Positions 1 to 55,550 of a stretch of 64,000 nucleotides of DNA are shown piece by piece. The DNA is from Escherichia coli (GTDB lineage Bacteria; Pseudomonadota; Gammaproteobacteria; Enterobacterales; Enterobacteriaceae): NCBI RefSeq assembly GCF_016903815.1, contig NZ_CP069973.1. One strand, 5' to 3'. The notes under the pieces were generated by a model. That model ran no database searches and was not told the origin of the DNA. It saw nothing but the letters and a program-made list of their open reading frames with translations. Within the stretch, counting starts at the first letter, position 1. Every line of letters starts with the position of its first letter. The position numbers were made by a program, and so were the translations under genes.

Positions 1-95
<95 letters not shown>

Positions 96-284
96 TCAGA
101 ATTAACTTAACTGTGAATCATGATGTTTTTAGCATCCTGATAAGAGCTAAAAGTTTTAACGCTACGTTGTTCGATGGTCAACGCAACGAAAAACAATTCA
201 GATTTTCTTTATAAGAATAGCTGATATTTATTAAGTTAATATTAAGCAGTGAAATTTAGTCTATAAGATAATTGGCAAAAATAA

Positions 285-990
285 ATATCCTCCGGCATAG
301 CCGGAGGTTTTTCAAATGCGCCTATAAGGCTCTCTTACCAGCCGCGCCCTAACAGGCGCACACGATCTGACATTTGCATCCAACTTCGTTACTTACGGCC
401 CGTAAACGGGCTGCCCGGATAGGGAATCGATAACTGCTCTCCCATTTTATCCTCTTCAAGCTGGTGCTTTATGTAATCCTGTATCTTCGCCGTGTTCTTA
501 CCCACTGTATCGACGTAGTACCCTCTGCACCAGAACTCCCTGTTCCTGTATTTGAATTTCAAATCACCAAACTGCTCGTAAAGCATCAGACTGCTTTTCC
601 CTTTCAGATATCCCATAAACCCGGATACGCTCATTTTGGGCGGGATCTCCACAAGCATATGGATATGATCTGCACAGCATTCAGCTTCCAGAATCCGTAC
701 GCTTTTCCACTCACACAGCTTTCTCAAAATACTGCCTATTGCTCTACGCTTCTCTCTGTAGAACACCTGTCTTCGGTATTTTGGCGCAAAAACTATGTGA
801 TATTTACAGTTCCATCGGGTGTGCGCTAAGCTCTTTTCGTTCCCCATTGGGACCCCCTTTTGATTTCTTGTTTGACACTTGCAGTTGCCAGACCGCAAGG
901 TGTTTTAACAAATCAAAAGGGGTTTTAATAACTGGCTCAAAGCTGAAAGCTTTCCGGAACCCCCAGCCTAGCTGGGGGTTTTCTGTGCAC
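285..990 (-). mobile_element. IS200-like insertion sequence (IS200/IS605 family) in the gnd-ugd intergenic region; boundaries approximate
   Basis: Carries a Y1-type transposase gene (389..847) flanked by perfect hairpins at 289..307 and 958..980; total size about 0.7 kb as expected for IS200. Ends inferred from hairpins, not from alignment. Confidence 0.6.
389..847 (-). CDS. tnpA: IS200-type transposase TnpA (Y1 HuH transposase)
   Basis: Translation MGNEKSLAHTRWNCKYHIVFAPKYRR...HIHMLVEIPPKMSVS...CRGYYVDTVGKN has the HuH motif and catalytic Tyr region of IS200 TnpA; start trimmed from ORF 389..898 to the Met giving about 152 aa. Confidence 0.85.
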   Translation of the reverse strand: MGNEKSLAHTRWNCKYHIVFAPKYRRQVFYREKRRAIGSILRKLCEWKSVRILEAECCADHIHMLVEIPPKMSVSGFMGYLKGKSSLMLYEQFGDLKFKYRNREFWCRGYYVDTVGKNTAKIQDYIKHQLEEDKMGEQLSIPYPGSPFTGRK

Positions 991-1020
991 AAAAAAGCCC
1001 GGCGCAATATACGCCGGGCC
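991..1020 (-). terminator. Putative intrinsic terminator downstream of gnd
   Basis: GC-rich hairpin gcccggcg/cgccgggc at 997..1019, followed on the minus strand by a T6 run, just after the gnd stop. Confidence 0.5.
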
Positions 1021-1046
1021 TCAATTTTATTGTTGGTTAAATCAGA

Positions 1047-2453
1047 TTAATCCAGCCATTCGGTATGGAACACACCGTCTTTATCAATGCGCTTATAAGT
1101 ATGCGCACCGAAATAGTCACGCTGTGCCTGGATCAGGTTCGCAGGCAGAACAGCGGCACGGTAGCTGTCATAATAGGCAACCGCAGCGGCGAAGGTCGGA
1201 ACCGGGATACCGTTCTGTACTGCATATGCGACGACATCGCGCAGCGCCTGCTGGTAGTCATCGGCAATTTGCTTGAAGTACGGAGCCAGCAGCAGGTTAG
1301 CGATCTGCGGATTTTCGGCATAAGCATCGGTGATTTTCTGCAGGAACTGCGCACGGATGATGCAACCAGCACGGAAAATCTTAGCGATTTCGCCGTAATT
1401 CAGATCCCAGTTGTACTCTTCAGACGCCGCACGCAGTTGAGAGAAACCCTGAGCGTAAGAAACGATTTTACCCAGATACAGCGCACGACGAACTTTCTCG
1501 ATGAACTCACCTTTGTCGCCAGCTGGCTGCGCTTGCGGGCCATAGAGAACTTTAGATGCGGCAACACGCTGCTCTTTCAGAGAAGAGATATAACGTGCAA
1601 ACACAGACTCGGTAATCAGCGACAGCGGTTCGCCGAGATCCAGCGCGCTCTGGCTAGTCCATTTACCGGTACCTTTGTTAGCCGCTTCATCCAGGATCAT
1701 ATCAACCAGGTAGTTACCGTCTTCATCTTTTTTAGTGAAGATGTCTTTGGTGATGTCGATCAGGTAGCTGCTCAGTTCACCGTTATTCCACTCGGTAAAG
1801 GTCTGTGCCAGTTCTTCGTTAGAAAGATTCAGGCCGCCTTTCAGGAGAGAATAGGCTTCAGCAATCAGTTGCATATCACCGTATTCAATACCGTTGTGAA
1901 CCATCTTCACATAGTGACCTGCGCCATCGGCACCAATATAGGTAACGCATGGCTCACCGTCTTCAGCTACTGCGGCGATTTTGGTCAGGATCGGTGCAAC
2001 CAGTTCATAGGCTTCTTTCTGTCCGCCAGGCATAATGGAAGGACCTTTCAGCGCACCTTCTTCACCGCCGGAAACACCGGTACCGATGAAGTTAAAGCCT
2101 TCTGCAGAAAGCTCACGGTTACGACGAATGGTGTCCTGGAAGAAGGTATTACCACCATCAATGATGATGTCACCTTTATCGAGGTATGGCTTAAGGGAAT
2201 CAATAGCAGCATCCGTGCCTGCACCTGCTTTCACCATTAACAGGATGCGACGAGGCGTTTCCAGAGATTCAACAAACTCTTTCACCGTATAGTAAGGAAC
2301 CAGTTTCTTGCCTGGATTTTCAGCAATCACTTCTTCAGTCTTCTCACGGGAACGGTTGAAAATAGAGACGGTATAACCACGGCTTTCGATGTTGAGCGCA
2401 AGGTTGCGCCCCATCACTGCCATACCGACTACGCCGATCTGTTGCTTTGACAT
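1047..2453 (-). CDS. gnd: 6-phosphogluconate dehydrogenase, decarboxylating
   Basis: 468 aa ORF; [27 protein letters not shown]... is the classic Gnd N-terminus and the length matches. Confidence 0.95.
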
Positions 2454-2547: not shown

Positions 2548-3567
2548 TTAATCATCTGAATATCCATTGGGGTTTTGCACTTGCCATTTCCAAGCATCTC
2601 GAATCATATCAGCTAAATCTTTTTTAGCTCTCCAATTTAATTCTTCATAAGCTTTTGAAGGATCTGACCAACATTCAGCGATGTCACCGGGACGCCTACC
2701 AACAAATATATGTGGTACAGCGACATTTGTTATTTGTTCAAAAGTTTTTATTAAGTCAAGAACCGAATAACCTTTTCCAGTACCTAAATTATAGATCTTA
2801 CAATTCTCCCCTTCATTCGATGCCTTTACCGCTGCAACATGTCCTTCGGCAAGATCCATAACATGAATATAATCACGCACACCAGTACCATCATGGGTAT
2901 TATAATCATTACCGAAAATATGAACCTCATTGAGTTTACCTATTGCGGTTTGGCAAATATATGGCATAAGATTATTAGGTTTTCCTCTTGGATCTTCCCC
3001 TAATAATCCTGATGTGTGAGCCCCAACAGGATTAAAATAACGCAAAATAGTACACCGAAATGAACTATTCGAATAACATATATCCGATAGAATTTTTTCT
3101 ATTATTAGTTTAGATGTACCATATGGATTAGTTGTATGTCCAACTTCATTTGACTCTTTTATAGGAATACTCTTTGGTGATCCATATACTGTAGCAGATG
3201 AACTAAAAATAAATCTCATTACATCATGTCGTAACATCTCTTCAAGCAATGCTAGAGTTCCGACGACATTATTATCATAATAACTTATAGGTGAACTAAT
3301 CGATTGATCTACTGATTTTAAACCGGCAAAATGTATAACAGCATCAATATTATAACTATTAAAGATTTGATTAAGTACTGTTCTATTTCTAATGTCACCT
3401 TCTATAAATGATGCCTTTCTTAAGCAAATATTGTTAATCCTTTTTAATACTGATAAATGCGAGTTAGATAAATTATCAATTATGATAACTTCGTAGCCAG
3501 CATCTAATAACGACACGACAGTATGAGAACCTATATACCCTAATCCACCAGTTACAAGCAATTTCAT
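2548..3567 (-). CDS. UDP-hexose 4-epimerase (GalE family), O-antigen cluster
   Basis: 339 aa; MKLLVTGGLGYIGSHTVVSLL Rossmann motif, YGxxK (YGTSK) catalytic motif, GalE-like throughout; AT-rich. Confidence 0.8.
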   Translation of the reverse strand: MKLLVTGGLGYIGSHTVVSLLDAGYEVIIIDNLSNSHLSVLKRINNICLRKASFIEGDIRNRTVLNQIFNSYNIDAVIHFAGLKSVDQSISSPISYYDNNVVGTLALLEEMLRHDVMRFIFSSSATVYGSPKSIPIKESNEVGHTTNPYGTSKLIIEKILSDICYSNSSFRCTILRYFNPVGAHTSGLLGEDPRGKPNNLMPYICQTAIGKLNEVHIFGNDYNTHDGTGVRDYIHVMDLAEGHVAAVKASNEGENCKIYNLGTGKGYSVLDLIKTFEQITNVAVPHIFVGRRPGDIAECWSDPSKAYEELNWRAKKDLADMIRDAWKWQVQNPNGYSDD

Positions 3568-13188: not shown

Positions 13189-13263
13189 TCTTTTATTCCA
13201 TATTACTTCAGAGCATGCAGTGAAATAAGCGGCTCTTAGTTTGATTAATAGAGGTATTAATGC

Positions 13264-13275
13264 ACGCTACCGCCC
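13264..13275 (-). promoter_or_regulatory. ops element (GGCGGTAGCGTG) within a JUMPstart sequence upstream of the rml/O-antigen operon
   Basis: Exact 12-mer CACGCTACCGCC on the plus strand, which is GGCGGTAGCGTG in the direction of rmlB transcription, in the galF-rmlB intergenic region. Confidence 0.75.
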
Positions 13276-13559
13276 CTGGCTTTACTGCTACCAGTGCACT
13301 GCATGCATGTCTACGATGTGACGAGCGTTACCCACTCGCGCTTAGCTCGAAAAATTCAAACGCTAATTGTCTTACCAATCCGCTCTGGAAACAAGGAAAA
13401 TCCTGGAAAACTTTGACTAAAATCCTATTGCTAACTCGTTGTTATTCTGATTGTTTATATAAAACAACGGCAGGAATATTCGCAGCAAATTACTTTCGCC
13501 ACGAATCTTCACTGCCGTTATAATTTTCTTATCAACCGTTACATTCGGTCAGATTTTCA

Positions 13560-19801: not shown

Positions 19802-19990
19802 GCCTGATGCGACGCTGACGCGTCTTATCAGGCCTACAAGACCCGAGCACAGAACCGTAGGCCGGATAAGGCGTTCACGCCGCATCCGGCATTCAGTGCC
19901 TGATGCGACGCTGACGCGTCTTATCAGGCCTACAGGTCCCGAGCACAGAACCGTAGGATGGATAAGGCGTTTTACGCCGCATCCGGCAAC
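19802..19990. repeat. Cluster of REP (repetitive extragenic palindromic) units between wcaK and wzxC
   Basis: Repeated gcctgatgcgacgctgacgcgtcttatcaggcctaca units in alternating orientation. Confidence 0.8.
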
Positions 19991-24395: not shown

Positions 24396-24485
24396 GTCGT
24401 TACCCTTTTTCAGGCAATAGTTGGCCCTGACCGAAACGGCCAATTTTGTTTTTGTCGTTATTTACATCTCGGTTTCGCATTCATT

Positions 24486-38925: not shown

Positions 38926-38937
38926 CACGCTACCGCC
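38926..38937 (-). promoter_or_regulatory. ops element (GGCGGTAGCGTG) within a JUMPstart sequence in the wza leader
   Basis: Exact CACGCTACCGCC on the plus strand, about 180 bp upstream of the wza start; the same 21-mer context (cacgctaccgcccctggcttt) recurs at 13264. Confidence 0.75.
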
Positions 38938-39405
38938 CCTGGCTTTTTAGCTACCAATACACTGATTTAGCTTAATTTTTAAAACCCTCTCAACATACAG
39001 TCGTTGATGAGAAAGGGTTATTGCGGAAATTAACTTCCGAATATAAGGTGACATTATGGTAATTGAATATTGGCTCTCCAATAATGCAGGAGGAAGTGTT
39101 ACAGCTAACGGAATAGCAGGCAAGGTAACAATTCGGTAATTGGCTATTTTTAAGAATTATATTAAGTGTCATTCAATATGGTTTTTAGGAGTTTCTTTAG
39201 GTTGACAATATTTAATATTGCGCCTCCACATGCGATATTTCTTAAATAATGTTTTATTATTACCACTTTTAATTCAGGGATAATGTGAGGTTATTACCCT
39301 CAAATAATATGAGATAAATAGTGCTGCAACATTGCATTTTTGCCCCGATTTATCCATGATCGAATTGTGACATTTGTCATACAACGAATAGGTTTTGTAC
39401 TTACT

Positions 39406-54562: not shown

Positions 54563-54739
54563 AAGAAATCCTTTCTTAGAGAATTATTGAGGTCCGGTAT
54601 CATACCGACTGCAACAATGAAATATGAGCAGGCAAAGCAACTTTCAGAATTAGGCCCGGCGGCGCAGAAAATTTTGCTATTCGCCTCGCAAGAACGGAGA
54701 GCCGTCGATTGACACTAAGGGCGGAGTGACATAATTTCA

Positions 54740-54885
54740 GGAGTGAGGGTTAGGGAGAGGTTTCCCCCTCCCCCTGGTGTTCTTAGTAAGCCTGGAAGCT
54801 AATCACTAAGAGTATCACCAGTATGATGACGTGCTTCATCATAACCCTTTCCTTATTAAAAGCCCTCTTCTCCGGGAGAGGGTTT
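54740..54885 (+). ncRNA. sibA: Sib antisense sRNA, copy 1 (antitoxin of ibsA); ends approximate
   Basis: Plus-strand promoter-like TTGACA (54709..54714) and CATAAT-like -10, transcript fully antisense to the ibsA ORF, hairpin ccctcttctccgggagaggg at 54863..54882. Confidence 0.55.
54783..54842 (-). CDS. ibsA: Type I toxin IbsA (19-aa hydrophobic peptide)
   Basis: Reverse complement translates MMKHVIILVILLVISFQAY-stop, identical to my recollection of IbsA. Confidence 0.8.
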   Translation of the reverse strand: MMKHVIILVILLVISFQAY

Positions 54886-55077
54886 CCCGTTTCAGCGTCC
54901 CGCTGAAATCGTCGGCTTACCTCCTTTCGCCCTGAATGCAGTCTATCGCTAACGCGTGAACAAAATAGTTTCCTCTGTGATTATTGCGTAACGACTCGCA
55001 AAGAATATTTGCTGGCAGGATCGCAGACTGCAAAGCCTGCAGATTGACAATCTTATCGTGAAGGCATAATTTCAGGA

Positions 55078-55220
55078 GTGAGGGTAGAGCGGGGTTTCCC
55101 CCGCCCTGGTAGTCTTAGTAAGCGGGGAAGCTTATGACTAAGAGCACCACGATGATGAGTAGCTTCATCATGACCCTTTCCTTATTTAAGGCCCCTTCCT
55201 CGGGAGGGGCTTTCCCGTTT
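55078..55220 (+). ncRNA. sibB: Sib antisense sRNA, copy 2; ends approximate
   Basis: Second repeat unit with TTGACA at 55044..55049 and a CATAAT -10; antisense to ibsB. Confidence 0.55.
55114..55170 (-). CDS. ibsB: Type I toxin IbsB (18-aa hydrophobic peptide)
   Basis: Reverse complement translates MMKLLIIVVLLVISFPAY-stop. Confidence 0.8.
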
Positions 55221-55405
55221 CAGCGTCCCGCTGAAATCGTCGACTTACCTCCTTTCGCCCTGTATGCAGTCTATCGCTGACTTGCGGATAAAATAGTTTC
55301 CAGTGTGATTATTGCGTAACGTCTCGCAAAGAATATTTGCTGGCAGGATCGCAGACTGCAAAGCCTGCAGATTGACAATCTTATCGTGAAGGCATACTTT
55401 CAGGA

Positions 55406-55550
55406 GTGAGGGTAGAGCGGGGTTTCCCCCGCCCTGGTAGTCTTAGTATGCTGGGTAGCTAATCACTAAGAGCACCACGATGATGATCCACTTCATCATG
55501 ACCCTTTCCTTATTTAAGGCCCCTTCCTCGGGAGGGGCTTTCCCGTTTCA
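55406..55550 (+). ncRNA. Sib-family antisense sRNA, copy 3; ends approximate
   Basis: Third repeat unit with TTGACA at 55372..55377 and CATACT -10-like hexamer; antisense to the third ibs ORF. Confidence 0.5.
55443..55499 (-). CDS. Ibs-family type I toxin, third copy (variant peptide)
   Basis: Reverse complement translates MMKWIIIVVLLVISYPAY-stop; same architecture as IbsA/IbsB with substitutions at positions 4-5 and 15. Confidence 0.7.
   Translation of the reverse strand: MMKWIIIVVLLVISYPAY

Follow-up and report, generated by a model that had tools for sequence, protein, structure and literature searches.

A complete copy of the insertion sequence IS200C (711 bp, minus strand, window positions 280-990) separates gnd from ugd in an Escherichia coli with an O102 O-antigen cluster, where it occupies the T-run of the gnd intrinsic terminator with both flanks intact; the window is the whole 64-kb stretch of DNA that was analysed. 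The best explanation, to which we assign a probability of roughly 0.85, is that an intact IS200C was pasted into this T-run, is transcriptionally insulated and is near neutral for gnd and ugd, the mode of transposition and the neutrality being the parts that we infer. Judging from family membership (PMC5934647, PMC2806898), single-strand 'peel-and-paste' arrival is the most likely route, in which the Y1 transposase would have attached the left end to the 3' side of a short, T-rich target, the gnd terminator T-run, without target duplication. A hairpin followed by T9 would thereby have become a hairpin followed by T6, the 711-bp element and T3, and the native 193-bp block upstream of ugd, with its PmrA/BasR-type box, would have been left unaltered. 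Expression of tnpA would be kept low by a weak promoter, a stem-loop sequestering the Shine-Dalgarno sequence and an antisense RNA, and, because its end hairpins are terminator-like and tnpA is held down, the insertion should be insulated transcriptionally and nearly neutral.

Identity, ends and internal anatomy of the element

Gene order on the minus strand is galE (3567..2548), gnd (6-phosphogluconate dehydrogenase; 2453..1047) and, after a 960-bp spacer (1046..87), ugd (UDP-glucose 6-dehydrogenase; 86..1), of which the window edge leaves only the first 86 bases. A first-pass annotation of this DNA had described a spacer of about 960 bp with a complete IS200-type transposase gene between flanking hairpins, and this description was borne out: tnpA lies at 847..389 (Pfam E=3.8e-38) and hairpins were found at 958-980 and 289-307, subterminally at the left and right ends, a third hairpin at 997-1019 being the gnd terminator and not part of the element. 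The coordinates proposed there for the insertion (285-990) were exact on the gnd side and 5 bp short on the ugd side, as the left end is at 990 (GTGCACAGAAAACCCCC...) and the right end at 280 (...CCGGAGGATATTTATT). The comparison with K-12 that had been suggested gave a 248-bp spacer lacking the element, and an exact empty site was also found in E. coli 28Eco12, to which window positions 1-279 joined to 991-1300 align over 589/589 bases in a single piece. This match fixes the ends of the copy at 280-990, without target duplication. Since TT ends both the element and every left flank, sequence alone cannot separate 711 bp without duplication from 709 bp (282-990, with the terminal TT as flank) plus a 2-bp TT duplication, and it is the family mechanism that favours the former.

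The same 711 bp lies between identical termini in all 19 element copies from 17 insertion sites, and the IS200C copies from other loci and genomes all begin GTGCACAGAAAACCCCCAGC and all finish CCGGAGGATATTTATT; copies 100% identical over 711 bp occur at many other loci in many genomes, while none was found elsewhere in the 64-kb window. By direct reading, the termini GTGCACAG... and ...ATATTTATT are unrelated, meaning that terminal inverted repeats are lacking. That the transposase gene might be a mere fragment or relic within native sequence, as opposed to part of a bounded mobile element, is next to impossible and was ruled out by the full-length open reading frame, the presence of both conserved termini, the identical full-length copies at other loci and the precise empty site in 28Eco12. 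The element is a known insertion sequence of the IS200 group of the IS200/IS605 family and is already annotated in RefSeq, where the protein at the same position in strain 7/2 is WP_000526135.1, 'IS200/IS605-like element IS200C family transposase'; the isoform name used here rests on this RefSeq/PGAP naming of the identical protein. Among the papers searched, we found no published description of an IS200 insertion between gnd and ugd, the sole match being an unrelated Klebsiella paper.

In the orientation of the element, the gnd terminator (991..1019, minus strand) immediately precedes the left end as part of the flank and consists of the hairpin at 997-1019 (-23.7 kcal/mol, z=-4.1) and six T (991-996). 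The T-run after this hairpin is T8 in K-12 and T9 in 28Eco12; in the window, the T9 is split by IS200C into hairpin plus T6, then the element, then T3 followed by GCCAATT, the remaining three T lying at 277..279 (minus strand) on the ugd side according to the empty-site alignment. The promoter and terminator scan did not report the gnd terminator on the minus strand, which was judged a quirk of the scan given the plain hairpin plus T6 and its folding energy. Weak Rfam matches to isrJ and Leu_leader at 992-1055 scored below the gathering score and were rejected as simply reflecting the gnd terminator hairpin.

The single gene of the element, tnpA (389..847, minus strand), encodes an intact Y1 (HUH) transposase of 152 aa, with the HUH residues at 61-63 (H61-I-H63) and the catalytic tyrosine at Tyr125, whose change to phenylalanine (Y125F) is described as catalytically dead (PMC4513863). 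The protein matches Pfam Y1_Tnp ('Transposase IS200 like') with 130.7 bits against a cutoff of 23 and is homologous to solved Y1 transposases, namely 2ec2 (4e-23), IS608 TnpA 2a6m (3.9e-19) and ISDra2 TnpA. It is both the sole annotated gene and the sole family-matching open reading frame in 280-990; tnpB is absent and the other open reading frames of at least 40 aa all overlap tnpA.

Hairpin and stem-loop coordinates agree with those of the published IS200 (PMC4513863). The left-end hairpin (958..980, minus strand) is perfect, with a 10-bp stem and a 3-nt loop, and spans IS nt 11-33, compared with 12-34 reported for Salmonella IS200 (PMC4513863); it is presumably the left TnpA-binding hairpin. 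In Salmonella IS200, the left-end hairpin is a bidirectional terminator that blocks incoming transcription (PMC4513863, PMC5435999), stopping ~85% of incoming transcripts (PMC5435999). The right-end hairpin, CCTCCGGC-TAT-GCCGGAGG (289..307, minus strand), lies 9 nt from the right terminus, is kept in all IS200C copies compared and is followed by ATATTTATT and TTT, making this end terminator-like as well. Direct reading of the two hairpins shows a common apex, CCNGC-TAN-GCNGG, as would be expected if one transposase binds both ends. The tnpA stop is followed, ahead of the right-end hairpin, by a second inverted repeat (317..360, minus strand) with 13-nt arms, 85% complementary.

Upstream of tnpA, a long stem-loop (854..922, minus strand; IS nt 69-137) covers the Shine-Dalgarno sequence AAGGGGGU and matches the structure at nts 69-138 in PMC4513863, and the left 150 nt of IS200C fold at -59.9 kcal/mol (z=-4.6). 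The element thus resembles Salmonella enterica IS200 in its size of ~0.7 kb (711 bp here, 707 bp quoted for Salmonella), its single tnpA of 152 aa, the position of the Shine-Dalgarno stem-loop, the sequence AAGGGGGU itself, the start codon at nt 144, and the lack of terminal inverted repeats and target duplication (PMC4513863). A gene for the art200 antisense sRNA is predicted at 837..927 (plus strand) from the arrangement in PMC4513863, and its predicted start at 153/154 fits the position of the tnpA start codon (ATG), IS nt 144 as in Salmonella IS200. The region also matches Rfam RF01405 (STnc490) with 146.4 bits against a gathering score of 56, over the full length of the model (1-124; window 980..857, minus strand). 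The left-end hairpin corresponds to model positions 1-23, and the match (857-980) lies on the tnpA-sense strand with the left-end terminator hairpin included. STnc490/art200 RNA is described as antisense to the tnpA 5'UTR (PMC4513863), and the strands of the Rfam model and of the published sRNA appear not to coincide.

Other Rfam matches in the window lie well outside the element: naRNA4 (REP-type, between wcaK and wzxC) and an algC RNA motif just upstream of cpsG, at 19860-19930 and 24400-24449, and three tandem Sib antitoxin RNAs (SIB_RNA, 139-150 bits) at 54709-55514, paired with three ibs toxin genes. K-12 presumably has two pairs at this locus (ibsA/sibA and ibsB/sibB).

Distribution and history at the edge of the O-antigen locus

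Copies covering at least 80% of the element are present in 2,063 of 5,426 complete E. coli genomes, with a maximum of 35 places in one genome. In 96 of these 5,426 genomes (~80 O102-type and 16 O160-type) an IS200 occupies the gnd-ugd site and is already annotated there; the ~80 carry a copy 100% identical to that in the window, and each of them has 18-35 IS200C places. The O-antigen cluster around the window copy is O102. Strain 28Eco12, typed as ST38 O102:H6 (PMC6963479), has protein accessions identical to those of the window lineage for hisIE, wzzB, ugd, gnd, galE, wzy, wzx and rfbC, showing that strains with this O102 cluster may carry the insertion or lack it and that the locus is common to different backgrounds. 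Together with the different IS200 copy in an O160 lineage, this agrees with the earlier view of the element as marking the edge of the O-antigen locus, a mobile region. Presence or absence of the element at gnd-ugd is a marker that splits the high-IS200C-copy O102 strains from the ST38 strain 28Eco12.

The 16 O160-cluster genomes (EC-7215, NCTC11023 and others) carry a decayed IS200 of a different subtype at the same gnd-terminator site, with 11/711 bases differing from the window copy and a tnpA stop at codon 25. Descent of the O102 and O160 occupied sites from one old insertion, subsequently spread by recombination of the O-antigen/gnd region, would agree with the ugd-side junction, which is identical in the two groups, and with the exchange of this region between lineages, as the O102 cluster is found both in strains with the element and in ST38 28Eco12 (PMC6963479). 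We nevertheless regard this history as unlikely: the window copy is one of a near-identical 'burst' subtype and shows 0-1 differences to copies at five of the other sites compared, whereas at IS nt 371 and 485 the O160 copy carries the bases of the other subtype, in addition to 9-10 private changes and the stop; the gnd-side T-run is T6 in the O102 group and T5 in the O160 group; gnd is 4.3% divergent between them; and an O102 locus lacking the element exists. Comparison of the copies thus favours independent hits on the gnd terminator over one inherited insertion, with gene conversion as a possible alternative source of the differences between the O102 and O160 copies.

Further insertion sequences have piled up at this locus edge in strain 720632: its gnd-ugd copy of IS200 is truncated, having been broken by elements of the IS3 and IS4 families whose transposase genes follow it, and ISEc18 interrupts wzzB.

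The ugd control region and the likely effect of the insertion

The first-pass annotation had placed the insertion about 200-300 bp upstream of the ugd start, where regulatory sites of ugd would be expected. We measured 193 bp to the ATG, close to the lower limit of that range, and the second part of the proposal is probably wrong, as the element sits in the gnd terminator T-run, upstream of the whole conserved 193-bp ugd leader/promoter block with its PmrA-box match. This native block between the end of the element and the ugd ATG (87-279) is identical to that of 28Eco12 and shows one base difference to K-12 and two to an O160 strain. It contains an intact predicted PmrA/BasR-type box, CTTAAT-N5-CTTAAT (230..246, minus strand; definition from PMC3973317), which has no second match in the 64-kb window (0 expected by chance) and is conserved in the K-12, O102 and O160 strains. 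The end of the element is 33 bp upstream of the box, and in all E. coli compared, conservation upstream of ugd stops at the terminator, which is the exact site of the insertion.

Salmonella ugd has PhoP, RcsB and PmrA sites (PMC3335776, PMC2681069), the PhoP site lying 145 nt upstream of one start site (PMC3335776), and E. coli yrbL is listed among promoters with both PhoP and PmrA sites where E. coli ugd is not (PMC2681069). No PhoP-box or RcsAB-like motif was found in window positions 1-1300. An unrecognised far-upstream ugd site in E. coli, if present, would be displaced by 711 bp, as is all sequence upstream of the T-run.

On the gnd side, the insertion leaves a U-tract of 6 uninterrupted U in place of 9, a shortening that could weaken the gnd terminator, and it places two more terminator-like hairpins between gnd and ugd. 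JUMPstart (ops-containing) elements are present on the minus strand at 13263-13301 and 38926-38964, upstream of the O-antigen and colanic acid wza operons. It is conceivable that RfaH-dependent read-through from the O-antigen JUMPstart to gnd and ugd would now meet the IS200 hairpins.

An altered expression of ugd, as considered in the first-pass annotation, could come about through separation from upstream sequence, through changed read-through from gnd or the RfaH-dependent O-antigen operon, or through transcription leaving the element, and it would have consequences for UDP-glucuronate supply, colanic acid and polymyxin resistance. The element ends only 33 bp from the PmrA-type box and replaces the sequence beyond, the two extra hairpins stand between the genes, long read-through transcripts are plausible given that a JUMPstart heads the upstream O-antigen operon, and the insertion is found in ~80 O102-type genomes. 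We consider such an effect quite improbable, as all 193 bp of native upstream DNA are the same as in the empty-site strain, the block conserved in every E. coli compared ends at the terminator where the element sits, the promoter scan found no outward sigma-70-like promoter facing ugd from within IS200C, and a weak promoter and strong insulation are known features of IS200 (PMC4513863, PMC5435999). In addition, 16/16 other IS200C sites also follow terminators, so that the location is explained by target choice without selection on ugd. The near-neutral insertion that we favour is accordingly a real but routine event, which probably changes little.

Target pattern across IS200C sites

A GC-rich hairpin precedes the left end in 17/17 independent IS200C loci examined (RNAfold -12.8 to -25.9 kcal/mol, 45 nt), usually 40-60 bp past the stop codon of a co-oriented gene. 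Between hairpin and left end there is, again in 17/17 sites and in a single orientation, a T-rich tract of 6-9 nt, and the last four flanking bases are TNTT in 16 of the 17 and ANTT in the remaining one, with TT in all. As a control, positions in this window that end in TT or are T-rich have such a hairpin ending 2-8 nt upstream in only 4-6% of cases, and a fold of that strength in 10.6%. The association of IS200C sites with terminators could partly represent survival of harmless insertions as opposed to targeting; selection of this kind does not explain their fixed orientation or their 6-9-nt spacing.

The Helicobacter pylori element IS608, the mechanistic paradigm of the family, is similar to IS200C in its Y1/HUH TnpA (2a6m), in having subterminal hairpins on one strand at both ends and in inserting 3' of a short target that is kept on the left flank (PMC5934647). 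In IS608, each hairpin has on its 5' side a guide tetranucleotide that base-pairs with the cleavage site (GL AAAG, CL TTAC; PMC5934647). The corresponding bases 5' of the IS200C hairpins are, by direct reading, AGAA and AAAA, and the cleavage points are TNTT (flank) and TATT (end of the element), so that analogous pairing of AGAA and AAAA with TNTT and TATT may be proposed. The two elements differ in that IS608 has tnpB and targets TTAC irrespective of structure, whereas IS200C lacks tnpB and its target at 17/17 sites is a T-tract 6-9 nt after a GC-rich hairpin. A terminator-type context is again seen for IS1541 of Yersinia pestis and Y. pseudotuberculosis, a close IS200-group relative with another host and another sequence that also expresses STnc490/art200 RNA (PMC4513863) and that sits between leader/attenuator and gene at pheL-pheA (PMC3082878).

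The target of this type of element has been called just a 'T-rich region' (PMC6963479). We tentatively raise the possibility that IS200C selects intrinsic terminators as a structured target, comprising a GC-rich hairpin, a spacing of 6-9 nt, TNTT and a fixed orientation; with its hairpin and T-tract, such a target is similar to the right end of IS200C itself, a hairpin plus ATATTTATT. Insertion into terminator T-tracts helps to account for the presence of 20-35 copies per genome with little damage, and the pattern predicts the positions of further IS200C copies. If true, a structured target would account for the near-harmlessness of IS200C and for the apparently independent hits on the gnd terminator in the O102 and O160 groups and, if not yet described, it would give the IS200 group a target rule guided by structure, unlike the purely sequence-guided IS608 model.
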